64,000 nucleotides of DNA from Raillietiella orientalis (taxonomy: Eukaryota), in NCBI GenBank assembly GCA_036172245.1, contig JAYWIR010000016.1:1736001-1800000 (forward strand), given 5' to 3'. How positions within the stretch are numbered: the stretch's first letter is position 1; every line of letters begins with the position of its first letter. Shown piece by piece: positions 7,481 to 44,369 of the stretch. Below the pieces are notes generated by a model that saw only the letters and a program-made list of their open reading frames with translations, searched no databases and was not told the origin of the DNA. The position numbers and the translations under genes were made by a program.

Positions 7481-8130
7481 CACTGGTGGAAGTCGGAAAC
7501 CTCCGGATGCTCCCGTTGACTGGCCAGGATTGGAAGTTGGCCCCCCAGGGTCATTCCAGGAATTGGAGAACTGGTTCCCTTCCGGTTATGATAATGGATC
7601 CTCCATTGCATACCATAAAGCTGGTTGATAGCCCCTTGGGAGTTTCCTTTTCAGAGTGTAAAGAAGCTCACTGCTCCCTTCGGGGAACGCCCTTCAGAAA
7701 AATTGGGAAGCGTCCCTTCGGGGTTCTCTTCAGAGGAGGAAGGAAGGAGCGGTTCCTTTGCGGGTTCATTCCAGAGAAGACATAATGGAATGCATTGCCC
7801 TCCGAGGGGTCCATCCGGAGAGAATAAGGGAAAGCATCTCTTCGGAGTTCCGTTCTGAGACAACCAAGGCAAGAGTTCTCTTCGGGGCTGGCACCTAAGA
7901 GTAAGAGGAACGGACTCCTTTATACGGAGCCTTCCTGGATTCATAGGGTGGTCCCCCAGGGTTTGCCCTTTAACTTGCAGAGTTACACGCACCCTCGGGT
8001 AATATGGACGGTCTCAAAGAGCTTCGTGAGCCACTGGCGAATGGTGCTTCAGCACTTGGCGAACCAAAAAAAAAAAAAATGCTGAGAGGAAATCTGCGGA
8101 AACAGAACTCGGAAGGATTTCCATCGTCCT
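7481..8130 (+). mobile_element. Family A SINE copy A1, body with hairpin array
   Basis: Homologous to 25240-25810 and 30030-30570; repeated GGGAAGCGTCCCTTCGGG-type units; 3' CAAAGAGCTTCGTG...GCACTTGGCGAACC(A)n. Confidence 0.8.
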
Positions 8131-14540: not shown

Positions 14541-16030
14541 TTTCACCCGGTTGCAACTAGGGTTCTTTTCTTTTTTTTTTTTCAAAGAACAGGTCACGTG
14601 GATTCCACCGGTCTTTGAAAAAGTTCAGGGAAAAAAAAAAAAGGCCAATTCACAGGCAGGTTGCGCAAAAGGGCAGGAAGGGTGTAGGAAAGGGGACAAT
14701 AATAGGCAAACAAAAGGGGGAAGGGACACGGGCCACCGGTCACACTCGACGAGACTTATGCAACCCGCGTGCGATGCAGGTGGAGTGTTCCTTGACTCTG
14801 ACGTCTTGACAGGCCATTTTGCCGCATCCCTCATTACTACGGAGTCGAGACGCGAGTGATTCTCCTCCCATTTTGCTGGAGAGCCTCCTCGATGTTCCGG
14901 GAAGTCGCGGTCTTCCTGACACAACGCAGGATCGGGGGCGATTGGGGAGGCAAGCGAAAGCCCGTCCCGCGAGAAGCAGAGTCGCAGAAGCCCTTCCGGG
15001 GGCGTCTTCGGATCGGAGTGGAGCAGCCGAGATGCGTTTCCGCGCGCTCCGAAGGTCACCGCATACTAGCAGCGGGTGCGCGGAAGTTTCGATTTCCCAG
15101 CAGCCAGGGCAGCTCGGGGAAGGGGATGGGAGAGGCACCGCTCCCCCTCGTCCAGAGGTGTCGTCGCTGGTTGAGCGGGAAGCCCCAGCTGCACGAGCAG
15201 CAAAGCTTCTTCGTGCTACCGCCTGAAGAGGTGTGCATGGAGCAGTTCAGATAAAAGGGAGGGCCTCACCATCCCCGACGATTCCGCCGAACGAGGCATC
15301 CCTTTCGCGCGGACACTGGGCATCGCAGCCTCAAGGCCATCTTCGACCCGCCCTCCACCGGCTCACCAACCTCGTCGCTCCCGCTACGAGATGACCCATC
15401 CTGCCAGTCGGCAACTGTTGTTTCTCTGCCGTAGGGAGGAGAGCGCTGCGACTAGTAGGGAAGGACTGACACTGGGATAAGTGGCCAGAGCCCTCTTCTT
15501 CCGGTCCATTTCCACTTTCAGTTCGTCGGCGGGTCCTGTCAACAACTCTGCGTCGGTCCTCTTGATGCAGGTCCAGGTGCTCACTGCTTCCTGATGCCAA
15601 ACGTTGTCTTTTGAGGGGTGGCAGGAGATCCAAGTATTTTCTTCTCAAAGGGCAGCGACCTTCCGTAATGGACCTTCCTTCTACCGAGCGCCTTCGTGCG
15701 GTCTCGGTAGCAGCGACGCCTTTTCCCCGCAACCGACCGTGCGTCTCACATTTCGCCTGCAGGCAGGCACCAAAGCCCCATCCATTTCTCGGCTGCCAAG
15801 GTCATCACCCTAAACTGGAGCTACACCTTCATCCCCTTAAGCATGAAGATGCCGTGTCCTGCACCCCTTCGTAGAGCGATCAGGTCTTTGAGGTCTTGAA
15901 GAGCCCCACAGCGCTTTCCGCAGGAGGCCGTTCGTGTTGAGACATGCATGACGGGAGCCAAACAAAAACTAAGGGTCCGGAAAAGGGGTAGAAAACGAAG
16001 GCGTTCCAAACGAAGGCGCCTTCTGGCTAG
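14541..16030 (-). mobile_element. Family B L1/Tx1-like 3' fragment B10 (old)
   Basis: Minus-strand EENTWISCHP (cf. EENTWIFCLP in B4) and CPGCWEIETSAHPLLVCGDLR zinc finger; terminal CCCTAGTTGCAACCGGGTGAAAA. Confidence 0.7.
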
Positions 16031-16187
16031 TACAGCTTGCCATCTTGGGGCGGTGTCAGCGCCACTTCTGCCTTCTGGAGGCTATCTAGAGAACTTCTGT
16101 AGAACGGAATTCTCCAGAGGGCACATCAAAGTATTTTATGATGCTACCCACGTTACCATGGGACCACCTAAGGTTAGATTCTGAGTT

Positions 16188-18066
16188 CGAAAAGCGAGAA
16201 ACCCATTGGCCCCGTTCCTCTTTTCCAGGAAACGGCGGCGTTCCGACAAACACCGCTCTCCTTCCTCTCCGACATCCTGCCAGCACACACCCCTCCCCCC
16301 CACGCGGAGACAAGCGCGGTGCGGAGGCGTTTCCGTAGTCACCGCGATGGCTCTCCCCTTTCTCTCTCTTCCCCCACGAGACCGAGGTCACGCAAGCGAA
16401 CGACGCGATGCCACGGGCCGACTCGCAGCTAGCGCCGTTCCCCGACCGCCGAAACGCGGCAGACGAAGGCCGACGCCATCCATGGCGAGCGACGAGCACC
16501 GCCACCGCCAGCCTCTCCAGAGGGCGGCTGCTCCTCCGATCCGAAACGGGCGCTGCGTCGACGGGAGGCAAGACGGAGGAGAACGCGAGCTCGCAGGGAG
16601 CGCACTCGCCTCACCCCCCTCTGCGTGCATGCGCTCACCGGAATTCCCGGCTTCCGCCCCGTCCCTACGACTGAGCACACCCGAGCAAGGAAGTGGCGAA
16701 CGGGTGCCCAGCATTCAGCCTGCCTTTCTGCCCGGACCGCTTCGTTCCCTCAAGTCCCGGCCAGTTCCTTACAGCCAGGAAACGAAGCGACGGAAACGAA
16801 CCGAGCGAGCGCTCCAGTCGAGGCCGAAGGCAAGGGATTCGCTGGAAGCACCGACCTGGCGGGCGAGCCAAAGCAAGGCAAGGACGCGCCACTCGTCCCT
16901 TGCATTCGTCCACTCGTCGGTCAGGACACCGGAGACATGCCCACGGCAACAGACGACGACGACGAGCCAACCGATCCATCCCGAGTCCGGAAGGCGCTCG
17001 CCGCGGAAGCCGGCAACGAACGAGCGCCACCGACTTGCCCGCGTCCTGGAATTCCACCTGCGGTTCCGATCGCCACCGGAGCTCGCGCCCCCTTCCCCGG
17101 GAACGAGGGACGTCTTCCTGGAGACTCTACGAAGCGGAAGACCACCATGCTCAGTTCCAAGCGTCCGAGCGTGATCAACGAAGCGCGGCTTCGCTCGAAG
17201 AGGACGAGAAGCCACGAAGGCGAACACGGCGGCCTCTTGTCTCCGCAGTTCCCGCGGGACAAGAGGCGCTTCCTGTTTCCTCCCGCGCACGAGGAGGCGA
17301 TCGCTTCCTCATCCGGGCCGTCGACCGGCCGAGAGGACCGCTTCCCGCTCCCCATTCCACGACGTCAGGACTCCCCCGGCTGCCGCCCAAGAGCCGCGCT
17401 GGCTCCCTTCCTTAATGGAAACGAGCATCTCTCTCGGAAATGCGTCTTCCCGGCATGCGCGCCGCAAGCAGCGGTCCGTCGTCAGCAGGCAGCTGACGAG
17501 GACCGCAGCCTCGCCCGGGGTTCGGCACGAGCAGCTACGAAGGGGCGCTCGCACCCTTCCCCTCATCGCTGCTCGCACCCTCGTCAGCACGCTCGCGCGC
17601 AACGAAAAGGCCGGCGCGGGGCCGTTGCCGTGGATCCCGGCCCACCAGGCCGAACGGGCGCCGCGACGTCCGCTCGACCTGCTTCCGTCCAGCTGGGTGA
17701 GCTCCTCCGGCGCGGCATCCAGCTGACCGCACGCGCGACCGGCGCCCGCCTTCCCGCACCGCTCCCTCATCACCGGGTGCCGCGAGACTCGCTGCCCCGA
17801 ACGGGATGACGCATCGGGCAGGCATCAGCCACCCGCCGCGGGGGAGCGGAAGGCGAGGAAGGCCGGCTGCCCCTCCCCCATGCAGCATTGCTCTTCTCCA
17901 CCGGTTCGCGCTCGGCGTGCTCCGCGACGCTCGCTGAGAAAATCCCCGATTGCTCCGAAGATAATGAGGTAATCTCGTTTGATGACCGAGGTACCATTGT
18001 CTCCAAGACAAAAAGGAAAATGACGAGGAAGGAGACAAAAAAACAAAGGGTTTGCCCATGTGGTAA
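16188..18066. repeat. GC/CpG-rich interspersed repeat, copy 2 (~1.88 kb)
   Basis: 16622-18064 matches 1-1442; GC-rich composition extends left to ~16190; candidate 6-bp TSD TGAGTT at 16182-16187 and 18067-18072. Confidence 0.8.
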
Positions 18067-18809
18067 TGAGTTTTGGGATCAGGAAAGGTGATAGTGCTAA
18101 TGGGGACGCCTGTGCGGGAAATTTTTAGCTGGCATCCTCATGGTTGCTGATAGCAGATTGACTTTCGTTTTCAGTCTTGGTATTCTGCGCTAAAGTGGAG
18201 AAAGAGAACGGGCAGTGGAAGAATAAATAATTAGTGGATGAGGAGTGATACACTTTCGACCGTTATTGAAATAGAAAGTGTCCTGGAGATGGAGAATTGA
18301 TTGTGTGTCCTGCTGCGCGTAGATAGGATACAGCTGCTGATTAAATTAGAAGAATTCAGTGGGACAGCAGGACGAAAGCCATCGGACCGAACTCTAAATG
18401 GGACACTCATCAATGCCGGAACAAATGCATGTCTTTGAGTTTTAGTTCCGGACAAATCTCATTAAAGCCTTTTGGCTTTAGTAAGGAGGAAGATCAAGCC
18501 CAGTGAGTGCTCGTCATCGTGGTTCGAATCTGCGATTAGAAGGCTCCTTGGCTAATACCTCCTTGCCTCTAGGGGTTCCCCTGTTTTTTGGTTAGCTTAG
18601 AAGCAAGATGTTAGGATATGTTAGGATGTTAGGATGGATAGGATCGCAATCTTGAACTAAGTGGTTCGAGTGCCCTTTTGGGGGAGTGGAAGGCGTGGGC
18701 GGTTTTGCAGAGGCCCAGACGTGCTTAGAGTCCCAGATTGACTACAGCAAGTAACGTGACTCCCTCAGTTTTCGTGAAGATGATTATCCCCGAAAGTCAA
18801 GTACAAATC

Positions 18810-19048: not shown

Positions 19049-19886
19049 TGCTGCACGGGCGCTGACGCTCCTGTATTTGGCCTTCCTCTCTTTACCACGC
19101 TCCTTCCAACGCTGTTGCCGAGTTCTCGCGAGGGGCAGGAAGCATCAGCTGGCCTTCTGGAGCACTGAGTCTAGGAAGTGACCCAAGTCGTCTTTCAGGA
19201 TTGGTGGGTTCGAGACAGTACCTCTCTCCCACTTTCTCTACTTCTCCGACTAGATTGACGGAACCGTGGTGTCTCCTGGGATGCGGAAGCTGGAGTTTTC
19301 GCGAGCAGTGATTTAAGGAATGTCAAGTACTCTTTTCATGTAAAGAGCCATCAGTGACCAGCAATGGATCCACCCACAGATGGGAGTGTAAATTCTCTGA
19401 TCGCAGGGTGTCTCTGAAACGTTTCGTTTACAACGAGCGTTGTATTCGTAGGAAAACGCTGCCCGTCGTTTTCACCAATAGTTTCAGAGTCACCACTCCG
19501 CCGTCCTTGCGTGACCCTGAAGTAGCTGTCTGCCGAGGCTGAAAGCGGAATGATGGAAATGGAGAAGTTTTAGGTCCCACCGATACTCTCTGAACTACAT
19601 TGCAGCCTTCCATCTTATACAAGACTGCGGTGCAAAGCGGAGACGATCCCCGCTGGCTACGAACAAGGTTCCCGTTGCATCTGTCGTGAACTGTCTCTTC
19701 CTAGAACGGAATTGGCGGATTTCTTTTCCTCTTGTTGGATGCAGTTTGAGGGAGGGGGAAGGGGGATTTGTCGGCAGAGGCGACCCTCGTAAATGCCAGG
19801 GAAATCTCCGGTGGGATGGAGCGAACTGATGGCAAAGAGAATCCACACGGTGGTAGGTTTGTTTTACCATCGACGAGCGACTGTGC

Positions 19887-21251
19887 CTCTGAAGGACTTT
19901 TGAGCTCCGAGTCCGGATGGCGGTCTCGGACTCCTGACGCTGGAGCGGATGGAGAATCAGCTGCGATGTCGAACATTGGCCATCGCAGCTAAGTTCTGGA
20001 GCACCCATTGGTGCGTTCCGGCCCGCCTCCTCGCCAGCCGTGTATCCAGAGCGGGAGGGCTGTCATCTTTTATTCTGTGCCGCGGCCGGAAAATAAGAAG
20101 ATGTGGCCTTCTCCTCGGACGCATGGCCACCCTGGCCAAGGAGAACGGCTGGATGGTCTGCAGCCCCGCCAACCCCAGCGCATGGCTGGAAGAAGCAGTT
20201 GTTACGTGGACGAAGCTCAACCAGTACGGAGGTGAATCCTGGAACCGCCTGCGATCCGGCATCTACGCCCGCTGCACGCTGCGGAAGATGCTTGAGTGTC
20301 CCGCCAGGAGCACGTGGGCGGAGACGACTCCACTGACCACGGCGCTGCCCTTCTTTAGGAGGGCGCTAGGCAGCAGCCGAACGCCGAGGTGGCAAGTCTC
20401 CTGCCGGATAATAGGCAGGAAGAAGACGTTAAGCGTCTGGACCATGAGGGAGCTCACCGACGCCGCGACGCCGAGCGTCCTTCCTCGAGGACTACAGAGA
20501 TAAGGCGAGCTGCTGGGCATCCCTTCGGATGACCTAAAGTGGACCTTGGTGTTTACAGACTCATCCACGCTCCCCCTCAGGTGGCAGGAGTCGCCACTCC
20601 TGCTGCTGCACTGGGGTCTCCCCTGCAACGCGCGCCGCCACCACTGGAAGCTGGGGAAGGTGAGGCCGAACTGTGCGGGGAAAAGGAATCCCTCTTCCAC
20701 CTGATAGTGGATTGCGATGCCCTCCGGCCCTTGTGGGAACGTTTTGCGACGACCCTCCGGATGTCGGTCGGCAGCCCCCCCCCCCCCCCCAGAGACGTTG
20801 TACGCCTCTTCGTGCGAGACACCCTGCAACCAGCCTCAGCCCTGGCAGCGCTCTTCTGCCTCCGAGGGATTGTGGCTGCATGGAGGGCAGCCAACAGTGG
20901 AAGCAGCGGAAGGGATGCCATCGTACACGCGTCTCGCTACCTGCGAATCGCGATTGGATGGCCCCATCTGGGAAGTACTCAGAGGGACCTCGAAGGCATC
21001 CTGCAAAGGATAGACCCTCCCAACAGCGGACTGTGATCCCTTCCCGGCCCTCCAAAGTGTTTCTTTTTTTTTGTTTCCTTTTATTTTCATTTTGTTTTTT
21101 CCCCCATCCCCCTCCGCTGTCGAAGAGAGTCGCGCCGGTCTACGTACCGGCGATCCGGCAGGTCCCGAGATGTATTAGTCGTAGGGGGCCTCGTACCACG
21201 AATGTACAGTGTTGTCAACAAATGCCCCGCCGTGACCGGCTGGCACTTTCT
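19887..21251 (+). mobile_element. Family B L1/Tx1-like 3' fragment B2
   Basis: DGGLGLL motif then zf-RVT-like LCGEKESLFHLIVDCDALRPLW; perfect 14-bp TSD ACGAGCGACTGTGC at 19873-19886 and 21252-21265; no poly(A). Confidence 0.85.
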
Positions 21252-22995
21252 ACGAGCGACTGTGCTGGGGAAGATGAAAGACGAATGTCACCTCATGCGG
21301 AGAGGTCCCGACTGGAGCGGATGATGCTAAAGGGTTCCTCAGGACGACTGGGGTGGAAATTTGGAACGAATCTCCATTAGCGAGAGCATCTCCTTTCACA
21401 CCTTTCCTGACTGGGCAGCTCTTCTGCAACCACCGGTGCTGAGATACCTGTTAGTCCTCGATCTTCTCACCTTACTTGTTTATTTATTTGGTCCTGCATC
21501 CTTTGCCACTTCTTAAGCGTCGTCTTCCGTATTATTCGCTCCTTTCGACTAGTGGCAAATTTTACTCATATTTAAATGAACGGCCCGGCATGTCCGGAAT
21601 GAAAAGGCGTTGGGTTGGTAAGCGGTGTCAGGTCTCCGGGCGCTAGATGAGAAGCCATTTTGCAGCAGTGAGATTGCTTCAGTTAAGAAGTTCCACGAGA
21701 GTGCAGTCACGGAAAATATCAGGAACCGACAGTAGTCACGTGGTCCCGGGAGCGACTTCGCCCGCCGAAATCCTCAGGGAGAACTCAACTTCATGTGAGC
21801 CAAAGCACCACAGTGGTCTGAAGGAGCTGCACGCCGATGAGATGCAAGAACTGTTTCAGAGAAGGATGATGTAACTTCTCTTGTGGACGCAGGTGGATCC
21901 AAGGGAGATGAGGTGCTATAGTGCAGGAGCTAACCGATGCTCATTCGGAAGTCGAGTGCTTGTTGAGGAGGATTCCTTTAGTTGTGATCAAGCTCTAAAG
22001 ATTGTACACATGTTTTATGTGCACAAGAACTGGTACTGCACGATGGACCGAAAGATAAACGGTGCCTTCAATTGCAGGAGTTACTCTTCATCCTGCAAAG
22101 GCAACTAGCGGAAGCATCCTTTCTGGAAATACATTGCCTCAATGGAACTTCAGGAACAATCCTTCAGCCTTCAGAAAGCGGGACACCGGCAGCCTGCTTT
22201 TCCATAGGAGAAACGATCCCCGGTCCAGAGCCAACATCCGACTGGGAGAGGATATCCTAACCCTCAGCCGACCTGCACCGGGCAGTAATCTTGCACAAAG
22301 GCTTCCAGAAGACCAGCTGAGACCAGCTCGCCTTCCTCAATCCCCTCACGGACCCTGCCTACTTTCGGACGCTCTCCAAGCCCAAGTCGAAGTCGTCCTC
22401 CCCGAGTGAGTATGGCAGGGTAGCCAGGAGCAACACCCTTGCTTCCATCAACACATAGAGGCGATTTTCCCCTATTTTTTCCCTACGACAGGACTTCTTC
22501 CTTGGATATCTCGTTATGGCGAAGGATGGGGCCAGGCGGGAGTCTTTCTATGTTTCCGGGTTCCGGCGCGTCTTCCAATCCTCACTCGCTCTCCCTGCAC
22601 ATGTTGCAGCGCGACTAAAAGAACAGGAGCAAGCGGAAAGCGGACTAATCTCTCCCAATCGCCAATTGCATCGGTAGGAAATTAGAGTACGCCAAGACAA
22701 ACGAATGACGGAATGAGCGAGGGATAAAGATCACACCTCCACTGGCTGAGGGTATGCTGAGAGTATGCTGCCAAAAGAGGAAGCACGGATGCACTTCACA
22801 ATCTGATAGAGAGGGAACTGCTCGTCTCTTGAATTGACAGTGGCAAGACAGCGGAGGAGTTCATCAACCGTCGAGGCACAATGCTCCGTGTGGACAAGAG
22901 ATGACAGAGAGAGGAAGAAAGAAGTACCATAATGGCCATGAACACTCCCTCCGGATTTAGGTCGAGAGCTTAAGGAAAAGGGGTTAAGAGTCTGG

Positions 22996-24247
22996 TTTAT
23001 CACCTGGTCACTCCAAGATGTTTATTATAAAAAATAAACATACATGTGTAGGGCCGTCAGACCTACATTCTCCGAAAATGTTCGGAACCTGTTGAATAAC
23101 CGGCACGCAGGCCGGCGAGGTTCGCCTGGCAGCGGAGGAGGAGGGGCAAACAAAAATAAAAATAAAACAAAAATATATACAGAAAAAATTGGGAGTGTTA
23201 GGGTAAGGACCTCCGGGTGCTGGAGGACGTCCTCTGCATCCTTTCCAGGATGACGGCAAATTCCAGTATGCCCCAGGTGGGACCCATCTTCCTGCCGTCC
23301 TCACGAAGAGCAGGGAGAAACAGATGGCGTCCCTATTGCGCCGTCTTCCTCTCGCGTGGTTCCAGACCTCTGCCAGAATCCCGCGTAGGCAGCAAAGAGC
23401 TGCTAGGGATGTGCTAGGCGAAAGGGCATCGCGCACGAAGAGGTGCTTCATCACGTCCCTGGAATTGTCCGTTGGTGCACCAAGGGCCCTTGCGTAACGC
23501 AACCACAGGGGCCGGAGGGCAACACAGTGTACAAGCAGATGCGGAAGGATTTTCGTTCCCCACACCTGCAATAGTTGGGGTCCACAGCCCGCTGGGTCCG
23601 GTGAGACCGACGGGCGTTTCAGGGGATACCCTAGTGCAACAGCAAAAGTGCCGACTCCTGCCAATTCAGGGGGAGGATCCGGTTGTTCTTCAGCGCTGGG
23701 GGCCACTCGAGGTCTTCCTGTAGGATTTCCAGCAACTCACCCCAGCTCAGCTGTCCCTTTGGTGGGGTATTTGGGGTCGCTGCGTCCGTAAGCTGGCCCG
23801 TGGTTCAACCACCTAATTCCTTCGTCCGAAGACCGATCTCACAACTGACCTCCCATTTGGCCTGCTGGTTAGTGCCCTGGTGCTCTCTGAGAGAGGGCAG
23901 TGCCGCTGCTAGGGATGTTCTTTGCGTCCACGCACACGTGGTGGGCTGCACGATGACGTCCTCCAGCGAGCGGTTGCTGTAGGAGTGCAGCAGTCTCCGC
24001 CGCATCTCCGGGCTCGCTTGGTTTTTCTTGGCGACCGGCTTCCTGCAACCAGGCACTACCTTTGCGGGCAGGCAGAAGATCCAGGTGTTCGTCCTGGTCA
24101 GCTTGGCCACTCTCTGAAGCTCCAGTTCGCAGTCGGACACGTGGCGTGGGCGCTGCCGCGCCAGGAACGAAACAGTCCCGTGTAGCCAGTGGTTCGCTTG
24201 ACCAGGTATCTTGCGGGCTCGCACCAGTTCGTCCTCCAATTTCGTGC
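22996..24247 (-). mobile_element. Family B L1/Tx1-like 3' fragment B3
   Basis: PHLLVHCVALRPLW zinc-finger region; nearly identical to B5; imperfect TSD TAAGAGTCTGG (22985-22995) / TAAGAGCTTGG (24248-24258). Confidence 0.85.
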
Positions 24248-25099
24248 TAAGAGCTTGGGGTGCAACCATCCGCGAAAGAAGCTGAGGATAGGATGGAACA
24301 AGATGGTAGCGAGAAAACGCACAGAATGATGGGCCGGACAGAAGGAGATAGGAGGATTGACCAGAGTGACGAAAGAGATCTTACTCAACGAGGCTGAGGA
24401 AAGCAACTTTCTTCTTTCCAGTCACCAATACCCCAACGCTGGTTGGGGTGGGTGGTGTTTGCTTCATTCTTTCTTATGCGCATTTTTTACATGCATCATT
24501 GTGAGCTGTGGAGCGTCGCATTCATTTTTAGTTCCATCCCGGAAAACAATGAATGCATCCATAAGAAAGGTGTGACTCTTCTATTTCAAACGGCTTATAA
24601 GGTGGATACAGTGTGATGCAGAGAAGACTTACTCTTTTCAGGACATCCAGAAAGCGTTCCCGATCCAGAAAAATCCCTCCAGAGTGCTGTCTCACCAGAA
24701 ATCTTCATCACACATCCTATGCAAGTAAGTTTTGTAAGCAAAGATGATGACTCCTTTGAGTGGCGATTATGATTCGTGGTTGCAACTCTGAAGTAGTCGC
24801 TGCAGGATTCATGCACGATGAGTGACTGCGAAGGGCAGCTCATGTACTTCCGGGTGCTTGCCCTCAGCATTCGGGAGTTTGTTTTATACGTTTAGGTTTG
24901 CTGAAGGTGATCCTAGGTGTTCCTCCACGCCGAAGTGCTCGGGAAGCTGTTGTTGTCTGTTCCAGCCCTCTAGGCAACCTCAAGTCCACCAAGATCAGAA
25001 GTGCATCGACCAAACATTGGAGTAAGCTGCTGTCCCGGCCGTGTCCAGAGTCCACCCCATGAGAACGCAATCAGCTCATCAATGCAGCCACACATCCTG

Positions 25100-25810
25100 C
25101 GTCGGCGGCAGGTTTGGCGCGTGGTGCCAAGCGTTGCGGGTTCGAATCTCCTAGGTGGAGGATCGACGCCGAGAAATGGGGACGCTTTGAGGGTCTCCCC
25201 TGCAGGATGACGTTGGTTGGATTGTAGGCCTCGGGTGCTGCACTGGTGTAAGCAGCCGGAAACCGGATGCCCTGCTGACTGACCGGTATTGGAAATCGAC
25301 CCTCCCGGGGTCCTTCCAGGAATCGAGGATCCCTTCCCCTCAGGTTGCGAAAATGGAACCATCCCTCTCCTCGGGGGGTTGCCTCTTCAGAGTGTAAGAA
25401 GCGCGCTGCTTCATTCGCGGAGCACCCTTCAGGGAAATTGGGGAGCGTCCCTTCGGGTTTCTCTTCAGAGGAGCAACAAGGAGCGGTTCCCTTGCGGGTT
25501 CCCTCAGGAGGAGAAATTCCAGGAGCGGATCCTTCCCGGGTTCCCTTAGGAGAAGAAATGTGGAATGGCCCTATCCAGTGGCCTCTCCCTTGTTCTCCCG
25601 AGGGAACAAGGAAGAGACGTCCTTCGGGATTTCCGAGCAGGAGTAACAGGAGCGGACTCCTTATTCCGGCACCTTCCTGGATTCATAGGCTGGTCCCTCT
25701 GACTTGAAAAGTTACTATATGCACCCTCGTGTGGTGTGGACAGCGTTAAAGAGCTTCGTGCCCTCCCCTCCCTAAGTCGGTGGACGGTTCTTCACTACTT
25801 AGCGAATCAA
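25100..25810 (+). mobile_element. Family A SINE copy A3 (near full length)
   Basis: B-box GGTTCGAATC at ~25139, GCAGCCGGAAACCGGATGC, hairpin array ~25420-25670, 3' AAAGAGCTTCGTG. Confidence 0.8.
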
Positions 25811-26949
25811 CTCAACAGAGGCAGATAGGGTGCTCCCAGTTTTGTTCCTCGGGAAGGAAATGAAAGTAATGAGGATTGGGGTTACCATGGGAGAATGGAT
25901 GCTTCCTGAAGAGGCTATCTGCCCCCAAAATCCGAATGGACTGCCTGGTTCTGCGCGCAAATACCTACAGGTGCCTAGAAAGGAAGCCTGGAGATTGGGC
26001 CTTTCTTTTTCTCCTTTCCTGTTTACTCACAGCTTTTACTCCTCCTCATTCCCAAAATGAGGAGTCAAACTTACAAAGGAATCAGTTAATCCAATCCAAC
26101 TATCGCACGGTAATTGAATTTCATCCATTGATGATGATGCTCATCAATTACTTGCCTACTGGTGATTCTGGAATACCACGAGCTCGAACGAACCAAACGT
26201 TAGCCGACGTCAACATGGCGAATGCGAGGTTCCCAAGTCGATCTGGGAGAGCCAGGTCAAGTTGCCATGGCGTGCCCCACGAGGCGATCCACCGTGGCGA
26301 GCTGGAACCACAGCTTCGCTCTGGGTGCTTTCCGCAAGGAGCAGCAGAAAGCAAGCTGCCACTTCCGGCTTTCATTGGGCAAGACTCGAAGCAAACTGAG
26401 GCAGCTAGAAAGGTGGGAAGAATATTAATCTGGGAGAATCGACAGGAGAGCAGGGAAATGCCTCGCTCCTCTGCGCTGGGATCGCGCTACATTCTGATCA
26501 TGCACGAAGCCCAATGGAAGGCCAATTGATTTGTTGTGTTATCCCCGCCGTCAGAGTCCATACGAATTGCGCGCGGGCAGACGAGATCATGGGAGCTTCG
26601 AATGGGGTTTTCGAAGCCTTAGAAATCTTCGACACATCGTGATTTTGAGAAACCTACGATACGGATACGAAACAGGACCTCGGAACACGCGAAGCGCTCC
26701 AGGTCCTGGGATTTCAGGGATCGAGTTCCAGCTCAGGACTTTTTCTTCTTCTTCTTCTCTTCAAGTGTTTTGCCTCTTGCAAAAAAAAAAGCGAATTCTT
26801 GATGCCTCTTCTGAATTTTTCGTTCTGATTGGAAGTTTTTCAGTACTCTTTTCATCTCAGCAGGATGTCTCCATCGGAAAGGCTTCATCTCTATGATAGC
26901 CGACTGTGCCGTGTGATGCTTTCACATCTGAACAACCTCGTAAATCAGC

Positions 26950-27504
26950 AGTGTGTGGGACCAAAAGGGTGTGCTTCTGGTGGACTTTATGGAGCCTGGA
27001 GGAACCACCACTTCGCAAGACTGCAGTGTAGAAACACTCTCGAAAGTGCGGCGTGCCATTCAGGACCGACGACATGGAATGCTGAGATCAGGAATCGTTC
27101 TTCTCCTTCACGACAACGCGCGCCTCGGCGACGCATGCTGTCCCCACATTCCAGACAATCCAGGAATTCAGATGGGAACTTTCTGATCACTCAGTCCTGA
27201 CCCGGCGCCTCGCCTCCTCCCACGTCTTCCTTCCAGCACCTCAAGAAGTGGCTCCACGATTCGAGGGGGGAAGTGGGGAGTGGAAAACTGCAGTGCCACC
27301 GGACTGGCTGGCCACTCCCAGACGGCGGATTTTGATGCAGACGGTTCCCAAAAAGCTATCGAGAGTGCTTGGGGAAGAAAATGGTGACTACGTGGAAAAG
27401 GGACACATGGATGGATGTGTTTCGAACCACTAATGCATCTTTGTTTCTCTTATTTGTCCTTTCTTTCTATCTGGTCGGTTCTTACTTTCGAAATACGCCT
27501 CGTA
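26950..27504 (+). mobile_element. mariner (Tc1/mariner) transposase remnant with right TIR
   Basis: WDQKGVLLVDFM...LRRAIQ-like...LLHDNAR, SPDPAP (cf. YSPDLAP) and NGDYVEK; terminus CTTACTTTCGAAATACGCCTCG-TA at 27481-27504. Confidence 0.85.
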
Positions 27505-27779
27505 TCCTTGCAAATTAACAAATCGAGTCTCTTAGTTGTGCGTCAGAAGCATTTATCCTAAGCAGGTTTGGAGCCGTTGCCGGAGGACATCAAATGACAC
27601 ACCTCATTACTACGTAGATTTCCATGGAGACAGTTTCCTATTGTTCTGACGAATTATCCTGAATTCCGTCGCTGTTGTGAATATTGCCGATTTCTTTTTC
27701 CTTAAAGGAAATTTAATTAATTGCACGTGGTTTGATTTAATTCCCGTAATAAATCTCAGGTTCCGAGTTGCACAGCGTA

Positions 27780-28980
27780 ATCAAAGCACGACTGCCCGTC
27801 CAGACGTGAAAAGCTGAGAACTGCGACCTCGGAAGAGTTGCAGCACGTCACTTGCGAAATCATCAAATCTCCTGTTTATGGGGAAAAAAAATGTTCCCCG
27901 GTAATGGCGGTTTACTCGAATGCTCTCGTTCGGGAGGAGCGGGAGATTTTGCGATGGCGTAAGAAGTCTTCGGAAGAGAAAAGGAAGAACTTCCTCGTGA
28001 CAGTTATGGATGCTAAGCTTCGCGGGATCGCGAACGGTTTGATTCCCGATCGCCTGAACAAAAATCAGCCGCCAGTGGTCCCTCCCACTCCGAAAGAGGA
28101 GCTGGTACCTTCTGGGAGCATTAGAGTTCCACGAAACAGGACGATTACGACCCAGGGGGTCCTCTTGGGCATCGCTTGACAATGATCGTGTTTCAGCGTG
28201 GCGCGAGGGTCGCAACAGCTGGAGTACTTGAGGTCCTTCTTCGTGAGAGCCTTTGCAGCTCGCAGACCACCGCAAACCGTTTGTTCCTGGAAGCACAAAG
28301 GACAGGAGCAAATTGGTGTCAGAGACACAGACACTGGGTCCTGGGACCTCGTTCCCATCATCCGATCGGATTTTTTCGCTTCCGTGGGTTCCATTTTGAT
28401 TTTACTCATTCTGTCTTCTCCACCACGGAGGAACCCGAATTCTTCACTGAAGACTCATCTTCGTTGTTGAATTGCAAGGAACAGGTCGCCTCTTGGCTGT
28501 CTCTTGCAGCAAGGTGGGTGGAAGCTGTGTTGAAGGTGACGTGAAGATACAGCGACCCTCCAGAAGGGAAGCGGAGACCCACGACAGAAATCATCATCAT
28601 TAAATCTCGCGGAACTTATCAATGACGAGGGTTAGTTGCACTTGAGAGAGAAAAGAGCAAGCGACTCGAGAATGAGCATACGTCAGGGCTTGCAGCAGCT
28701 GTCAAAGTACCCTGATTTTCAAGATTGGTATTATTCAATTATCCTGGTAGCCAGGAGACTCCTCCCCCATTCTAACTCTACAGGCAGTTGCCTTCCAACG
28801 CGTTTCTCATCCTCCTTCTCAATGAGACCCAGCAATCTGAACAGCAGCTTGCGACCTCTCGAATCTGCCGACTGCGTGAGAAAGTGGATCTTCGAAGCAT
28901 CCGAAGGCACCCAACCTGCATCAAGCAAAATGCGGGTCATGCTTACGTGGCAACAGGATAGGGGAAGCTGGAGGATTGCC
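27780..28980 (-). mobile_element. Possible decayed BEL/Pao LTR retrotransposon pol remnant
   Basis: RILLDAG...FLT resembles the Pao protease RILLDSGSQRSFIT; otherwise degenerate. Confidence 0.25.
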
Positions 28981-28984
28981 CGCG

Positions 28985-29190
28985 CTGGTGGCGGCCTCGT
29001 CGCGCAGCACCAGGCATCGCGGGTTCGAATCCCCCAGGCGGGGATCAACTCCGGGAAATGGGTGCGCGTCGTGGGTTTCGAGTCCTCCCCCTCCCCCGCA
29101 AGATGACTCTGGTTGGAAACCGGATGCCCCCCGTTAACTGGACGAATTAGATAGTCGACCATCCGGGGTCCTTTCGGAGCATCAAGGAGC
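28985..29190 (+). mobile_element. Family A SINE copy A4, 5' part
   Basis: GGTTCGAATCC at 29022-29032, GTCGTGGGTTTCGAG, GGAAACCGGATGC; homology resumes at 30029. Confidence 0.75.
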
Positions 29191-30028
29191 GCCTTGTACA
29201 ATCTAAAGTTTGGAGATTTTTATGACAGAGAACAACCATAATAACTCATTTACTAAATGTTTCACAAACAGACTCCTGGCGATACAGGAGGAGGTTTTTC
29301 CAGTAAGTATTCATCCCAAAACACCAAAGAACGTGCACTAGGAGAAAGGGAAAATTTCTCAGTTAGCAAGCAAAAAAACTGAATCCAAAGAAGCTTTTTC
29401 TGAAAGTGGAAGCATAAACAGTAAAAGCAGAACTGTCAATGAGAGATCCTTTGCTGATGCAACGAAGAAGCAGATCAGATCTCATATATTTAGTTCGTGG
29501 TAAAGATCGTGGAAGAATAGCATGGCATTATGTATTAGTTGATAAAGATAAAAGAGAGATGTTTCTTGAAAAAAGTAGGACTGTCTCTATGGATGTTGCA
29601 GATTATGGGGAAATTCTAGTACCAGATTAATTTTACTTTTTCTAGTTGCTCTATAGCTTCCTGAAAACTGTTGTGAGATTCAGTTACACCTAAAATATCC
29701 TTTTTCTTCTATTCATCTGCATTTAAACTTTGACTCTCAGCTATAAGTACACCTTCGTTTTCCCCTAACGTTAGTACTGAAGGTTTTTCACCAGCAAATC
29801 TGCTTGGTTTAATAAAAGAAATAAGGGACCTTAACGAGGAAAAAAACTTAACAAGAATAACATTGGCGAGTTATGTGAAGAGTATAAGAAGACTCATAAT
29901 ATTGGCAAGAGTTCGGATGATAAGCATGGTGACAGGCAAAAAGTAGGTAATAAGCACCGATCTTCTGGAGATGAAAGTTTCGGTGCAGGATCACAGCAAT
30001 CGCAAAGGAGTACAAGTACAAGCCTTTT
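29191..30028. other. AT-rich bacterial endosymbiont (Wolbachia-like) DNA integrated in the nuclear genome
   Basis: Abrupt drop in GC; GGAG Shine-Dalgarno-like site at 29212-29215 before ATG 29222; peptide matches a Wolbachia protein motif from memory; flanked by the two halves of a host SINE. Confidence 0.7.
29222..29618 (+). pseudogene. Frameshifted, 3'-truncated Wolbachia-type hypothetical protein
   Basis: RSFADA/RRSRSDLIYLVRGKDRGRIAWHYVLVDKDKREMFLEKSRTVSMDVADYGEIL; the continuation I recall from Wolbachia homologues (YSGWGEDPP) is missing. Confidence 0.7.
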
Positions 30029-30570
30029 GGAGCTCCCCTACGGTTGCAAAAATAGAGCCACTGATACCCCCTCGTAGAGATGCCTTTCCAGAGTCCCAGG
30101 AGTGGGCTGTTCCCTTTGGAGAGCGTCTTTCGGAGAAATTTGGAAGCGTTCCTTCGGGCTCCCTTCAGAGGAATAAATCAAGAGAGGTTTTCTTGTGGGT
30201 TCCCGAGAAGGAATGAGGAGTGGACCTTCCCAAAAGATTCCTCCGAAGACAATAAGAGGATCTCTTTGGGGTTTCCTTTGAAGGCAACCAAGGCGAGCGT
30301 TTCCTTCAGGGTTCCCTTCCAAGAGTAAGAGGAACGGGCTCCTTCCTCCGGAGGCTTCCTGGGTTCATAGGATGGTCCCCTCCCGGAGTTCCCCCTATGA
30401 CTTGAAGAGTTAACACGCACCCTCGGGTGACATGGGCAACGTCAAAGACCTTCGCGAGTTCCTCCCCTACGGAGGCGAACTGTTCTTCGGCACTTGGCGA
30501 ACTAAACAAAAGAGAAAAGCCGGAAGGAAGGCAGTGAAAGCAGAGGAACTCACAAGGATTCCCATCATCC
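30029..30570 (+). mobile_element. Family A SINE copy A4, 3' part
   Basis: Hairpin array plus GCACCCTCGGGTG and GCACTTGGCGAAC, as in A1. Confidence 0.8.
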
Positions 30571-30576
30571 TAGGCC

Positions 30577-32300
30577 TGATCTTCTGCTGCTTATCCCCGT
30601 GACCACCCCAGCTCCAGCACTCGAGGATTTCTTCGAGTTGCCAAGTCGGGGCTCAGGTCTTGAGGCGAATAGTGCGAAGCGTCCTTGGAGCCGGTCGGAG
30701 CGGCGTGGGCTGGACGGTGGGACTGGATCCGCTTGGGGAACCCCACAGACGGGTACTTCAAGAACCTTCCGTTTGGAGACTTATGCGTAACAGAAGCCTG
30801 GTCCCGCCATCTCCAAAGGGTAGACATGTAGCTCGGCCCGTTCCAAAACGACAGGTTTTGCTTGCCGGAACGGGCCGTGGAGAGGCACTCGTTTGCGACT
30901 CCCCTCCTCCGCCCCCTGCTTTTTATTTGCTCTGTCCCTCCTGACATCAAGCGAAGAACCGGGGACTTCCTGAGAAAAACCCTGTGGACCACAGGGAGCT
31001 CCAGACTTCATCTCGAAGACTTGAGCGCTCAGCGTAGGGATCGTGGACTGGGCCTCCGTACGCCGCAGAGGATAAAGCGTCAGTTCCAATTCAGAAGACT
31101 AGCCTTCGCGGCGAGATTATGGACCATGCCCTGGTGCGCACCAGCACGGCTCCTCGCGAAGAACACAACCGGCTGCAAGGGACTCACGTTCCTCCCCGCC
31201 GGGGATACCAACTTCGCCAGCTGGTTGCTCTGGTGGAGGAGAACACCTGGATCTTCTGCCTCCCCGCGAGCTGCACTTCCCGGCTTCTGGAGTCGATCTT
31301 CGCTCGGAGGAAGATCCACGGTGCGAGCGAGGCGGGGCACGCCTGCCTGCGACGAGGCATCAACGCTCGCAAGTCGCTGGAAGAGATCGTCCTCAACCCG
31401 CTCAAGATGCGGTGGACCTCGTCTGCTCCACTTGCCCCAGTGCTGCTCACCTTAGGGGACGCAAGGGGCAGCGTAATCCCGGCAAGGTGGGAAGTGACTT
31501 GCTGCATAGCAGCAAAGAAGAAATTATTGGGGTCGTGAACAACTCGATGCTGCGACCCCGAGTGTTCCACCCCAAGGACTTCTACGCTGGGGGGAGCTGC
31601 TCGACATTCCCCCGGAAAAGGTGAAGGAGGGCCCCAGAGTTCTGGAACAGTGGCACCTTCTTCCTCAAGTGGCAGGAGTTGGTGTTTCTGGTGTTGCATG
31701 GGGGAATCCCATGCAAAGCACATCTTCATCATTGGACACGGAGAGCGAGGGTGCTCTGTGGGACAGTTGCGGGAAGGAGGAAATCAACTCGCACCTGCTG
31801 ACTGTGTTGCCCTCCGTTCCCTTTGATATCGCCTCGCGACCATCCTAGGAATCGCGATGGGCGGCCCCAGGGACATTTTCAGATGCCTCTTGGCGCTCGG
31901 TGCCGTTCTGCCGCCAGCCACGTCCTTCTCTGTTCTCCGGTGTCTTCGTGGGATGGCGGTGGCCTGGGATGCCAGAAGACAAGGTCGAAATGGGAGGGAC
32001 GCCATCCACTGGGGGCGGATCTTCCTGGGGACCGCTTCGAGAAGGCCCCACCTGTGCGAGACACGGGCGGAACTCTCTGGCATCGTGAGCAGGATGTTGG
32101 CAAGTTCCCTCCCCTATTTTGTGTGTATATGTGTTTTTCTTGCTTTTGTTTTTCCTTCCCCCACGCTGCTGATGCGGACCGCACCAGTCTGCGTGCCGTT
32201 CTTCGGCAGATGCATTGCACGTGGTAGAACCCAGGGCTCCACCACACCAATGTATTTCTATTGCTTTACGTAAGAAGTGCTCCGGCATAGCCGGGTGATG
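30577..32300 (+). mobile_element. Family B L1/Tx1-like 3' fragment B4 (1.7 kb)
   Basis: Post-RT motifs GYFKNL, FLRKTLWTTGSSRLHLEDL..RGLGL and zf CGKEE..HLL; TSD ATCATCCTAGGCC (30564-30576) / ATCATCCTATGCC (32301-32313); ends CCGGC-ATA-GCCGG-GTGATG. Confidence 0.85.
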
Positions 32301-33734
32301 ATCATCCTATGCCCTTACGAGAGTCTTTGCCGCTTGCAAACCACTGGTTTTTGGAAGCACAGAAGACTACTGATCTCTCTTGCATCTCTCTCCCTCATTT
32401 TCACCCCAGTGCCTTCTAGAAAGAAATGCCTCGTTTCTCAGATCTTCGGCACGAAAAGCGACGACCACATCGCCAGAGGCTCCTTGTGGTACGTGGTGGG
32501 CAACAGAGTGGATGTCGAACAAACCAAGCACGATGTTTTGCTCACAAGCACTGGAAGGTGATCCTCTGCAGGTGAGTCAAGGAAATCCAATGAAGATTCT
32601 CACATGTGGGAAGAGAGAATTCCATCGGTCCAGAATACTCATCAGCCAGATCGTCGACTTGACCGCCGGAAATCGGAAGCGGAGAAACGAAGCCGTGGTG
32701 ACAACCTAAGCTACCGCAAAATCGGCAGTACAGAAGTCAGCGGCGCCCCCTGGCAATCAGCTGTGCTACGTGGAGATTGAACTTGTAACCGAATGTCCAG
32801 GACGAACCCATTCTACTCCGCTGCGAAAGACCGTCTATCTGAGACCAGAGGACCGAAGGGCCGGAAGAAACACCCCATGCAGCTTGCAGGGAAGGGTAAG
32901 CCTGAACCTGGCCGAATCGCGCCTCGGTCCAAGGGATGCGCTCACTCTCTGCATGTGGGAAGGAGAGCTGGTCACAAAAACCCTCGAGCGCTGTTCGAAT
33001 CAGCTTCCCTGCTCCAGACGTGCTCAGCCTATTCGAGAGAGCCTCAGCCTTTTGATGCGCGACAGCAGTATTTCCCGAGTCTGCCGCCGCCCTCCCGTAA
33101 TCCCCCTATAAATAAACGAAATGGGAGCCACATCTCATTGGAATACACGCGAGCACTCCAGAGTACTCCAAGAATCAGACGCTTCGCTGCTTCCTCCCGT
33201 GTTCAAAAGCGACCGGGACTTTCACTGACAGGAATCCCTGAACTCCCAACACTTCCACACAGAAGTCAAGCATCCGCTGGCATCCCCGAACCCCCTGCAA
33301 TCGCGGTGCGCATGAAGGAGGAATTCAAAGAAATCTTTGCGCTTCCATTGGGGGGTTTTCCTCATTCTTCAAGAGCAGAGGGGAATTCGGGAGTCCACAG
33401 GGAATAAACACTGCTCCCGCCTTCTGCGTGCTCAGCTTTACTCCTTTCTGCTTCCGAGACCGTGATCTATCTGATCTTAAATTGAATGATTCTGGATGAG
33501 ACAAAGATGGAAGAAACGATTCGAGGGGCGGGACCAGCTCAAGTCCGGAGGCCTCGTGTCTCTAGAGTGCCGAAAGACAAATGCGCGGCACTCTGGAGAC
33601 CGCGCGACACTAGGCGCTGCGGGCCCCACCTGGAGAAAGACGGCTCCAGAGAAACGGGTGCGCCGTGAGATGGAGTCCTCGCCGCAAGATAACTCCGGGT
33701 GGCCTGTGTTCGGGCGTGGCACTGGCGGAAAGAT

Positions 33735-34255
33735 GGAAACCGGATGCGGATGCCCCGATTAGTGGCCGGGATTCGAATTTCACCCTCGGGGGGTCCTTCC
33801 AGGAATCCATAACCAAGAACTCGGTTTCCTTCCGTTCGTGAAAATGGAGCCACCGCCGTCCTTCCTCGGGGAAGGGTCCCTCCGTAGAGCACCATGGAGC
33901 TGGTTGATTGATGCCTCTCCAGAGTGTTTAGAAGTGCGCTACTCCATTCGGGGAGCGACCCTTCGGAGAAATTGGGAAGCGTCCCTCTCTTCAGAGGGGT
34001 AACAAGGGGAGTGGTTGCCTTATGGGTTCCCTCCGGAGAAGAAATAATGGAACAACCCCCCCGGGGATCCATTCGGAGACAACCGGGGTGAAGGTTTCCT
34101 TCGGCGATACCTCCCAAGGAGTGATAGGAACGGACTCCTTCCCCCAAAGCCTTCCTGGATTCGGAAGCACCCTTTAACTTGAAGAGTTACTACACGCACC
34201 CCTGGGTGGCGTTAGCAGCGTCAAAGAGCTTCGTGAACGGACGGTTCTTGACCAA
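33735..34255 (+). mobile_element. Family A SINE copy A5 (5'-truncated)
   Basis: GGAAACCGGATGC, CCCTTCGGAGAAATTGGGAAGCGTCCC array and CAAAGAGCTTCGTG, followed by an A-rich tract. Confidence 0.75.
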
Positions 34256-35332
34256 CAAAAAAAAGAAAAGAAAACCCGGAAGAGCACTAACAAAAAAAAA
34301 TGAAGGATCGGTGTCACTGCAATCAGTTCATGTCACTGTTCTTTGTTTGGGAGGACGCAAACGGTTCCGTACGTAATGGTGGTCAACCGTTGTTCTTCGA
34401 GAACGGAAGACATGATTCTCGAGGTACAGTGCTTTTCCTCGAAAAGCGCGCGCATGTTTTGATGGATTGACTTTTTTGTTGTTGTTGTTCCCCTCCATTT
34501 CTCGAAGAACGTCGATGGCACGCGACCAAACACGCACTCGGATCTTTTAGGAAGGACGCTGCGCGTGATGTACACGAGCTCAGCTTCTGAGAACCTGTTC
34601 TGCACCAAGAATCTGACCCCAAATCACATCCAGTAAGCGTGCGTGCTGCAGGAAGAGGAGGTCGATAGCCTGTCAGTGGCTCTCCCCTTTTCCTTAACTT
34701 CATCGGCTCCATCCCTTGGTGTTACTCCGAGCAGCTGGGAGGGTCGCTTCACGAGAAGGAGCCAGCAAAGAAAAGCTTCCAAAGATCGGTTCTTCTCGGA
34801 AAGTCGTCCCTAAGAAGCGCCTTTCCAGTATTTTCCAGTTTCCTTCCTTTCCGGTATTCTCCGATGCCGTACTTACCACGGCTGCTGCCCACCCTCAACC
34901 TGATGTCCAGTGTCATTCTCTCTTCGGCGGAGGTCGGTTCCGATGCTGAAGGAGGCTCGTGCTGCGTGGTGCTGGAACCGGTCGTTCCACCCAAGCGTCC
35001 GTGCATGTCGTGGCGCTGAACAGCTGGTGAGCTCACGAATGAGGTCGGGTGCAGGTCTTGCTGCGGCAGGCGAATCAGCAGCCGAGAGTGCTTCAAAGAC
35101 CTACTACTAGGCAATAATGTTGTTAGTGTTTTCAATCTTGAGCTCCGCAGCTCTCTACGTCGCTCGGAGGCAGAGAACGCAGGAGTTCACTTGGAGCTAT
35201 CCTACCCTACATGGCAGGGATTTTTTATGAGCATCATCATCTTTTGGGTGGCTGTAAACGAAGGCAGGACTCCGGTGCGCTATCATGACTCAGCCGCTTC
35301 GGGGCATCTTCGATGGTGACATACATCCCGTT

Positions 35333-36010
35333 GATTTATCACCGGTAACGCCAGGGCGTTGATTATAAAACTAATAAACATACATGTATTGGGCCGTCAG
35401 ACCTACATTCTCCGAAAATGTTCGGAACCTGTTGAATAACCGGCACGCAGACCGGCGAGGTTCGCCTTGGCAGCGGAGGAGGAGGGGCAAACAAAAATAA
35501 AAATAAAACAAAAATATATACAGAAAAAATTGGGAGTGTTAGGGTAAGGACCTCCGGGTGCTGGAGGACGTCCTCTGCATCCTTTCCAATGTGACGGCAA
35601 ATTCCAGTATGATCCAGGTGGGACCCATCTTCCTGCCGTCCTCACGAAGAGCAGGGAGAAACAGATGGCGTCCCTATTGCGCCGTCTTCCTCTCGCGTGG
35701 TTCCAGACCTCTGCCAGAATCCCGCTCAGGCAGCAAAGATCTGCTAGAGATGTGGCAGGAGAAACGGCATCGCGCATGAAGAGGTGCTTCATCACGTCCC
35801 TGGAATTGTCCGTTGGTGCTCCAAGGGCCGTTGCGCAACGCAACCACAAGGGCCGAAGGGCGACACAGTGTACAAGCAGGTGCGGGAGGGATTCGAGTTC
35901 CCCGCACCTGCAATAGTTGGGTTCCACAGCCCCCCGTGTCCGTTGAAGCCGGCAGGCATTGCATGGGGTACCCCAGTGCAGCAGCAGGAAACTTGCACGG
36001 AATACCACAG
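35333..36010 (-). mobile_element. Family B L1/Tx1-like 3' fragment B5
   Basis: CRCGELESLPHLLVHCVALRPLW; near-identical to B3; TSD TACATCCCGTT (35322-35332) / TACATTCCGTT (36011-36021). Confidence 0.85.
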
Positions 36011-44170: not shown

Positions 44171-44179
44171 GACCACGGA

Positions 44180-44352: not shown

Positions 44353-44369
44353 AAATCACGCAGCCGCCT

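Follow-up and report, generated by a model that had tools for sequence, protein, structure and literature searches.

We analyzed a 64-kb window of the Raillietiella orientalis genome (assembly GCA_036172245.1, contig JAYWIR010000016.1, positions 1,736,001 to 1,800,000 of the forward strand, numbered here from the first base of that stretch) and found nine 5'-truncated copies, B1 to B9, and a tenth, degenerate copy, B0, of a long interspersed nuclear element (LINE) that terminates in an AATAAA-like hexamer, a 5-bp hairpin and a few further bases. Poly(A) was absent from the ends: an original prediction, made from the letters of the window, had claimed this, and none of the nine copies (0/9) carried an A-run between the stem and the flank. 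The usual explanation for how L1 elements choose their template is binding of poly(A), the so-called "relaxed" mode, which is also the basis for the mobilization of short interspersed nuclear elements (SINEs) and mRNAs. We consider it probable that B1 to B9 and B0 are instead dead, 5'-truncated insertions of a deep L1-like lineage with a poly(A)-less 3' end of the "stringent" type.

The interval that drew attention to the family holds copy B2, which carries the best target-site duplication (TSD) and part of the second open reading frame (ORF2):

19873-19886, + strand: 5' TSD of B2, ACGAGCGACTGTGC, an exact 14-mer found again at 21252-21265
19887-21251, + strand: B2, a 5'-truncated LINE copy of 1365 bp with the C-terminal part of ORF2 and the 3' untranslated region (UTR)
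21217-21251, + strand: terminal module of B2, consisting of AACAAA, TGC, CCCGC-CGTGA-CCGGC and the tail TGGCACTTTCT
21252-21265, + strand: 3' TSD of B2, ACGAGCGACTGTGC, the second copy of the exact 14-mer

The ORF2 portion of B2 extends from a GGLG motif to a CCHC domain and contains one stop and at least one frameshift. It is followed by a 3'UTR of ~215 nt, with a T-rich and then a C-rich tract, and the terminal module directly abuts the TSD. The perfect 14-bp duplication predicted at 19873-21265 was thus borne out; in this repeat-rich window, 2 of 300 random control points also showed an exact 14-mer of that sort.

The other copies were located as follows:

6567-7620, - strand: B1, with AATAAA at 6587-6592 and hairpin CCCGG-CGTGA-CCGGG at 6569-6583; 5' end and TSD ambiguous
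14541-16139, - strand: B0, a degenerate copy of the B lineage found by tblastn with the protein P0041 (see below), with tail remnant ACCGGGTGAAAAC
22995-24253, - strand: B3, with AATAAA at 23021-23026, hairpin CTTGG-AGTGA-CCAGG at 23003-23017 and tail TGATAAAC; its 5' end lies at or past 24253
30564-32313, + strand: B4 including TSDs, element 30577-32300, hairpin 32281-32295, tail TGATG
35322-36021, - strand: B5 including TSDs, element 35333-36010, hairpin 35342-35355 (1-nt deletion), tail TGATAAATC
38633-39656, - strand: B6 including TSDs, element 38643-39646, AATAAA 38667-38672, hairpin 38649-38663, tail TGATAA
43745-46094, - strand: B7 including TSDs, AATAAA 43781-43786, hairpin CCGGG-AGTGA-CCAGG at 43763-43777, tail GAGAA; interrupted by B8 and B9
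44185-44356, + strand: B8, a 3' fragment of ~170 nt nested in B7, AATAAA 44325-44330, hairpin 44334-44348, tail TGTGAAAT
44357-45548, + strand: B9, hairpin 45526-45540, tail TGCGAAAT; same target as B8

The copies measure ~170 nt to 1.7 kb and share their 3' end, indicating variable 5' truncation. All are old and contain stops and frameshifts. Pairwise identity was 65-70%, with the exceptions of B3/B5 (91%) and the tails of B8/B9 (79%), and B1 to B9 therefore represent several old subfamilies rather than a single burst of insertion. Among sequencing runs, one of DNA was listed, with a 0.06 share of words, and none of RNA; contigs of the DNA run, compared with 19800-39799, pointed to many diverged paralogues, 289 of 384 being less than 90% alike.

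Despite this divergence, the terminal block of B has a common layout: an AATAAA-like hexamer, 3 nt, CCCGG-5 nt-CCGGG and a tail of 5-11 nt, whose consensus after the stem, approximately UGAUAAAYC, is itself conserved between subfamilies. The hairpins quoted in the original prediction were present in B1, B3, B4, B6, B8 and B9, and degenerate versions were seen in B2, B5 and B7; the hexamer that it described was found in all nine as a like-form and as an intact AATAAA in six. A covariance model built from eight of the tails recovered those eight and, independently, B7 (E=0.0012), the next match having E=1.3, and a 26-nt consensus gave three matches with at most three mismatches, compared with none in 100 shuffles. 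We compared conservation along the element using seven of the nine copies, omitting B7 and B8 and excluding the B3/B5 pair. Across the 20 intersubfamily pairs, the last 30 alignment columns (hexamer, stem-loop and TG) were 68% identical, while three adjacent windows of the 3'UTR gave 34-47% and coding windows 48-69%.

All nine matches of the covariance model in the window were LINE 3' ends, and no SINE with a B tail was found in this one 64-kb window, a very small sample. Scans with the tail as a DNA pattern gave eight metagenome loci and two loci in prokaryote genomes, all of them unrelated bacterial sequence and none a LINE tail; the ten comprised 7+1 copies of one locus and two others. A scan of metagenome contigs guided by P0041 and B2 gave 151 pattern matches, of which none was confirmed.

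Junctions, target sites and the related element A

Five copies are delimited by TSDs, with matches of 14/14 in B2, 12/13 in B4, 10/11 in B5, 10/10 in B6 and 12/13 in B7. The duplications other than that of B2, together with a relevant unoccupied site, lie at:

30564-30576 and 32301-32313, + strand: TSD copies of B4, 12/13
36011-36021 and 35322-35332, - strand: TSD copies of B5, 10/11
39647-39656 and 38633-38642, - strand: TSD copies of B6, ACTTTCATTG, 10/10
46082-46094 and 43745-43757, - strand: TSD copies of B7, 12/13
41180-41270, - strand: paralogous empty site of B6, a repeat X copy in which ACTTTCATTG runs without interruption at 41215-41224

We gauged chance matches at the 300 random control points: 18 had a 13-mer with at most one mismatch, 41 an exact 10-mer and 138 an 11-mer with no more than one mismatch. 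Because of the last two rates, the matches of B6 and B5 count only with positional support. The 5' TSD copy of B5 lies at the edge of the homology with B3, and that of B4 abuts the homology with P0041, which starts at 30578, next to the element start at 30577. In the case of B6, both flanks match a copy of repeat X beyond the 10-mer, and this empty site contains neither the hairpin nor a LINE, giving one paralogous site in which the hairpin is absent, a check that had been proposed along with the original prediction. Repeat X is GC-rich, with copies at 39647-39700 (carrying B6) and 41180-41270 (uninterrupted) on the - strand. A 15-bp "TSD" of B6 at 41224 was rejected: the similarity continues past 15 bp, so the match is a paralogous copy of the target repeat, that is, the empty site, and the true 5' junction is at 39656.

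The list of duplications proposed earlier held for B2, B4, B5 and B6 and was not confirmed for B1, B3 and B9. No TSD was found in the flanks of B3, and that of B1 is ambiguous, with TCAACCAG occurring twice in the 3' flank. A 9-bp TSD of B9, GAAATCACG, was set aside, since these bases are preferably assigned to the tail; the target repeat is instead CACGG.GCCCG-like and present three times, before B8 (44174-44184), between B8 and B9 (44357-44368) and after B9 (45549-45559). We read B8 and B9 as two insertions into the same target, nested in B7. A search for a TSD of B0 found none.

The TSD-defined ends lie 11 nt (B2), 5 nt (B4), 9 nt (B5), 6 nt (B6) and 5 nt (B7) past the stem, and our reading of B8/B9 gives a tail of 8 nt, TGYGAAAT; these distances agree with the predicted termination 4-11 nt after the hairpin. 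Measured from the hexamer, the B copies end after 23-29 nt. The targets are not T-rich, the nick contexts being CG/AC, CC/AT, CT/AA, TC/AC and CG/AC, and six of eight TSDs start with A, after C, G or T. The TSDs of B2, B4, B5, B6, B7 and B8/B9 are unrelated in sequence, and a common target was found for B8 and B9 only.

The window also contains a more complete LINE, which we call A:

47050-52482, + strand: LINE A, near full length, including the 16-bp TSDs A11TTCAA at 47050-47065 and 52467-52482

The ORF1 frame of A encodes 561 aa with a CCHC zinc knuckle, and its ORF2 encodes APE and reverse transcriptase (RT) domains with an in-frame stop at 50863-50865. Within ORF1, a 12-bp unit, GAGCAGGTTGGC, is repeated 6.6 times at 48259-48337. 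The 3' end consists of AATAAA (52430-52435), TTTAC, CCCAC-CCCTT-GTGGG (52441-52455), ACCTGGG and A15, and the element ends 27-31 nt past the hexamer. Its layout is that of B: after the hexamer come a GC stem of 5 bp, enclosing a loop of 5 nt, and a tail of 7 nt. The stem sequence is different; to judge from this layout, A appears to have the same kind of 3' end as B. As the alignment register is ambiguous, we call the stems of A and B analogous, not homologous.

The A15 of this element, together with an A-rich run near the end of B0 and the stops and frameshifts that mark all the copies as old, could suggest that poly(A) tails were once present and have been lost by erosion or deletion. The junctions speak strongly against this. 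Unlike the B copies, A was inserted in an A-run target: it reads A11TTCAA at the 5' junction and A15TTCAA at the 3' junction, and 11 of the 15 A's therefore belong to the TSD, leaving at most four as a possible tail. Since the run is duplicated at the 5' junction, it is target sequence. In five B copies, including the one with the 14/14 duplication, the tail abuts a recognizable TSD without any A-run, and the tail after the stem, UGAUAAAYC, is conserved between subfamilies. Erosion is very improbable, because an exact loss of the tail in every copy would have had to spare the TSDs, and integration of the B copies without poly(A) is supported.

The terminal hairpin and the start of reverse transcription

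We studied whether the hairpin behaves as an RNA structure. RNAalifold predicted the 5-bp terminal stem, and under an 8-pair model, 81.7% of 71 cells were paired, compared with 28-44% when the partner columns were slid. The loop (CGTGA, AGTGA, CGTAA, CGTTA, CGCAC or CATAG) is more variable than the stem, in which the pair G19-C27 is invariant. B4 has an extra closing pair. In B2, two substitutions break the consensus register and create a new helix of -11.1 kcal/mol, the hairpin in the shifted register being GCCG-UGAC-CGGC plus an outer 4 bp. B3 keeps the pairing by a change from C-G to U-A plus one U·G pair. The original prediction had read the B3 change as compensatory. The change is present, and CpG decay is not an obvious cause of it, since CpG is not depleted in the window (observed/expected 0.88), which weakens that candidate explanation; it is nevertheless a single event. 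Covariation, a check suggested at the same time, was not significant: the alignment contains one double change, and 65 of 500 column shuffles reached the 81.7% pairing. The terminal hairpin is conserved; that it is conserved as a structure is plausible from the alignment and is not proven by nine copies.

A second stem, CCGGY-CUGCGU-RCCGG, was found in the 3'UTR ~100-160 nt before the element end (alignment columns 44-63). In B2, it forms a perfect 7-bp stem at 21134-21153 (+ strand), and between subfamilies, it shows a series of C-G, U·G and U-A pairs. Its covariation was 0.27, compared with 0.16±0.05 in shuffles, 15 of 500 of which were as high, and is suggestive only.

The near invariance of the terminal stem, the lack of significant covariation and the ordinary thermodynamic stability would also suit a palindrome CCCGG...CCGGG maintained by descent or for a reason other than priming, for instance as a DNA-protein site, an element for translation or stability, or a transcription terminator. 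We regard such a role as improbable: the block is the best-conserved noncoding part of the element and stands at a fixed distance from the integration junction, its loop varies more than its stem, and at the same position, sister A carries a stem of another sequence.

Under the stringent-type reading that we consider probable, the poly(A)-less ends would arise as follows. The ORF2 protein of the B lineage would bind the terminal module on the RNA that encodes it, by analogy with L2-clade LINEs, in which such binding to the element's 3' stem-loop has been shown experimentally (PMC4176376). The endonuclease would nick a target that is not T-rich, and the nicked strand would pair with the tail over its final 1-3 nt. 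Synthesis of cDNA might then start at the paired tail end, at a distance set by the hairpin, and a poly(A) added 23-29 nt past AAUAAA would for that reason be left uncopied. In B4, B6 and B7, the TSD opens with ATC, AC and ACC, respectively, 2-3 bases identical to those with which the consensus tail, AAAYC, closes, an agreement that fits priming by microhomology. A wider reading, open to considerable doubt, is that the whole deep A+B branch of the L1 group in this host has kept or evolved a hairpin-anchored initiation, in which the ORF2 protein uses a stem-loop between AAUAAA and the cleavage site as a ruler, begins the cDNA at the final templated bases and skips the poly(A).

The spacing of the module also suits another account. 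Cleavage of the RNA at the textbook distance from AAUAAA would fall into the range of 23-29 nt seen here, and the block could therefore be a signal for RNA 3'-end formation only, with reverse transcription beginning at the physical end of a nonadenylated, deadenylated or very shortly adenylated RNA through 1-3 nt of microhomology and without recognition of the hairpin. The hexamer-to-end distances of B and A (27-31 nt in the latter), the scatter of the ends over 5-11 nt, resembling the microheterogeneity of cleavage sites, and the nonsignificant covariation are in line with it, and one A could be tail-derived, given that six of eight TSDs begin with A. That AAUAAA acts as the poly(A) signal of the host is, however, an assumption. 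The hexamer is mutated in three of nine copies, while the stem pair G19-C27 is invariant, and polyadenylated templates normally give variable A-tails, which were seen in 0/9 copies. On balance, an RNA end signal without hairpin recognition appears rather unlikely.

Several observations weigh against the stringent-type reading. The sample consists of nine copies from one 64-kb window, all of them old and none young. The hexamer is an intact AATAAA in 6/9 copies, and B2, whose TSD is the best of all, deviates most in hexamer, stem and tail. In B0, a 20-nt A-rich run precedes ACCGGGTGAAAAC at the position of the hexamer in the other copies; we prefer to place this run upstream of the tail remnant, and the placement is uncertain. 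Along with the shuffles reported above, single-sequence folds gave z values of only -0.20 to -1.25, with 21-75 of 200 shuffles folding equally well, and with so little variation in the stem, it may be the sequence rather than the structure that is conserved. Microhomology was seen at only three of five junctions. Finally, all B copies in the window stop short of the RT and endonuclease regions, and because none carries either domain, recognition of the RNA by the protein is pure inference.

Lineage of the B copies and other contents of the window

To place the lineage, we searched the B2 ORF, with its stop read as X, by HMMER and found a single relative, P0041, among 1.84 billion representatives. 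P0041 is 619 aa long, carries RVT_1 and matches the B2 ORF with 48% identity over 130 residues (E=2e-26); B2 aligns with residues 465-619 at 45-48% identity and the B4 ORF with P0041 at 50%. The nearest named relatives of P0041, from ticks, a frog, fish and plants, are 28-30% identical, and many combine PF00078, PF03372 and PF13966. Among solved structures, the best match of P0041 was to chains of human L1 ORF2p (E ~1e-39), compared with 1e-17 for R2 proteins, and the best match of A was likewise human L1 ORF2p. The closest relative of P0041 is A, with 33% identity over 366 aa (E=7e-63). For the B ORF, an RT domain is thus seen in its only database relative, as the RVT_1 of P0041, and sister A carries Exo_endo_phos and RVT_1. 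Pfam gave no score to the B fragments; in their C-terminal domain, a CX2CX7HX4C motif is readable in B9, B6 and B0, and B3/B5 show it in a CX1C variant.

We inferred a tree of 34 rows by a quick method, taking our own search matches as rows, none of them labeled Tx1. P0041 and A were sisters (Shimodaira-Hasegawa-like approximate likelihood-ratio support, SH-aLRT, 99) within a 25-row clade (96) that holds L1-like proteins of dog, frog, fish, tick and plants; nine rows fell outside. These comparisons support an identification of the B copies as 3' ends of non-LTR retrotransposons belonging to an L1-like lineage. To judge from the same proteins, B is a new, deep-branching L1-like lineage, with at most 34% identity to anything found. 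The label "L1/Tx1-like" given earlier is supported as far as "L1-like" goes, through GGLG, CCHC, the RVT_1 of P0041 and the tree. The site specificity of Tx1-type elements was not seen, as the defined B targets all differ.

Outside the LINEs, 97 ORFs of at least 128 aa gave no Pfam family and no host gene, and the window accordingly appears gene-poor and repeat-rich. A GC-rich segment of ~1.5 kb (61-66% GC) is present twice, at 1-1560 and 16620-18140, with near-identical long ORFs on both strands, to which Pfam likewise assigned no family. At 41498-42205 (+ strand), beside repeat X and not within an rDNA unit, lies a 708-nt fragment of eukaryotic large-subunit rRNA, which matches Rfam RF02543 over model positions 675-1445 with 334 bits. 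The window has 54% GC and is strongly depleted of TpA (observed/expected 0.46), and hardly of CpG (0.88).

Comparison with known systems

The B copies do not show the relaxed, mammalian-type ends, with poly(A) and a T-rich TTTT/AA target. Starting points set by the 3'UTR itself are familiar from R2: Luan and Eickbush reportedly found that, in vitro, its reverse transcription starts at a fixed 3'UTR position whatever lies downstream and that poly(A) is not used. R2 differs in having a restriction-like endonuclease, in being specific to rDNA and in belonging to another clade, and its match to P0041 is far weaker (1e-17).

The L2-clade LINEs UnaL2 of eel and ZfL2-1 and ZfL2-2 of zebrafish share two features with B: they lack poly(A), and a conserved 3' stem-loop stands a few bases before their end. 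In UnaL2 and ZfL2, the stem-loop is bound by the element's own ORF2 protein, a binding needed for retrotransposition (PMC4176376; PMC3747384). Their ends consist of short repeats in tandem, (TGTAA)n for example (PMC3747384), and they belong to another clade, whereas B shows no repeat unit, has AATAAA before the stem and encodes an L1-like protein.

Within the L1 group, the vertebrate elements are similar to B in the layout of ORF2, with a C-terminal CCHC, in their T- or C-rich tracts and in an AATAAA near the end. In all species examined by Boissinot and Sookdeo (PMC5381506), vertebrate L1 ends in AATAAA and then a poly-A tail, and the L1 3'UTRs in fish, frog and lizard hold poly-T or poly-C tracts. 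In B, a hairpin and a short tail come after the hexamer instead, and the TSD adjoins the tail without a gap. The Tx1 clade, including Tx1L of Xenopus, Keno, Kibi, Koshi and Tx1-Mar, is part of the L1 group, and some of its members reuse one target (PMC4494074). The shared target of B8 and B9 and the insertion of B6 in a repeat are reminiscent of this, but many Tx1 families are target-specific and the targets of B differ. The consulted part of Kojima's Tx1 paper (PMC4494074) contains nothing on ends without poly(A).

The closest parallels come from plants and algae. In a monocot L1 lineage, the LINE1-1_ZM group, conservation is far higher over the last ~45 nt than elsewhere, and these fold into a hairpin, which has been read as stringent recognition within L1 (Ohshima 2012, PMC3472496). 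Poly(A) terminates these elements, and SINE partners share their tail; poly(A) is absent from B, and the window yielded no SINE with its tail. Table 1 of PMC3472496 lists L1-clade families without a 3' repeat: among flowering plants 9 of 233, among green algae 5 of 15. They share with B the absence of poly(A) or a 3' repeat, and the anatomy of a hexamer plus hairpin is not described in the consulted part of Ohshima 2012. Stringent recognition has been proposed by Ohshima to be ancestral in L1 (PMC3472496; PMC3747384).

If hairpin-anchored initiation is true, A and B would be a living example of that stringent ancestral L1, one terminal module uniting the poly(A) signal with the hairpin that is recognized. 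The B lineage would then offer a natural system of the L1 group in which to ask whether specific 3' recognition is ancestral, how the starting point of reverse transcription is measured and whether such elements fail to make processed pseudogenes. For annotation, LINE 3' ends in this host should be sought with a model of hexamer, hairpin and tail rather than by poly(A).

We found no description of an L1-group lineage combining AATAAA, a terminal hairpin and the absence of poly(A) in the literature outside Repbase and subscription journals. The "unusual 3'-recognition mode" suggested at the outset is apt in relation to vertebrate and mammalian L1, but not to LINEs overall, the majority of which are described as being of the stringent type (Hayashi et al., PMC4176376). 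With L1 families lacking a 3' repeat and an L1 with a 3' stem-loop already published, the end of B is a known kind of end in a new variant.

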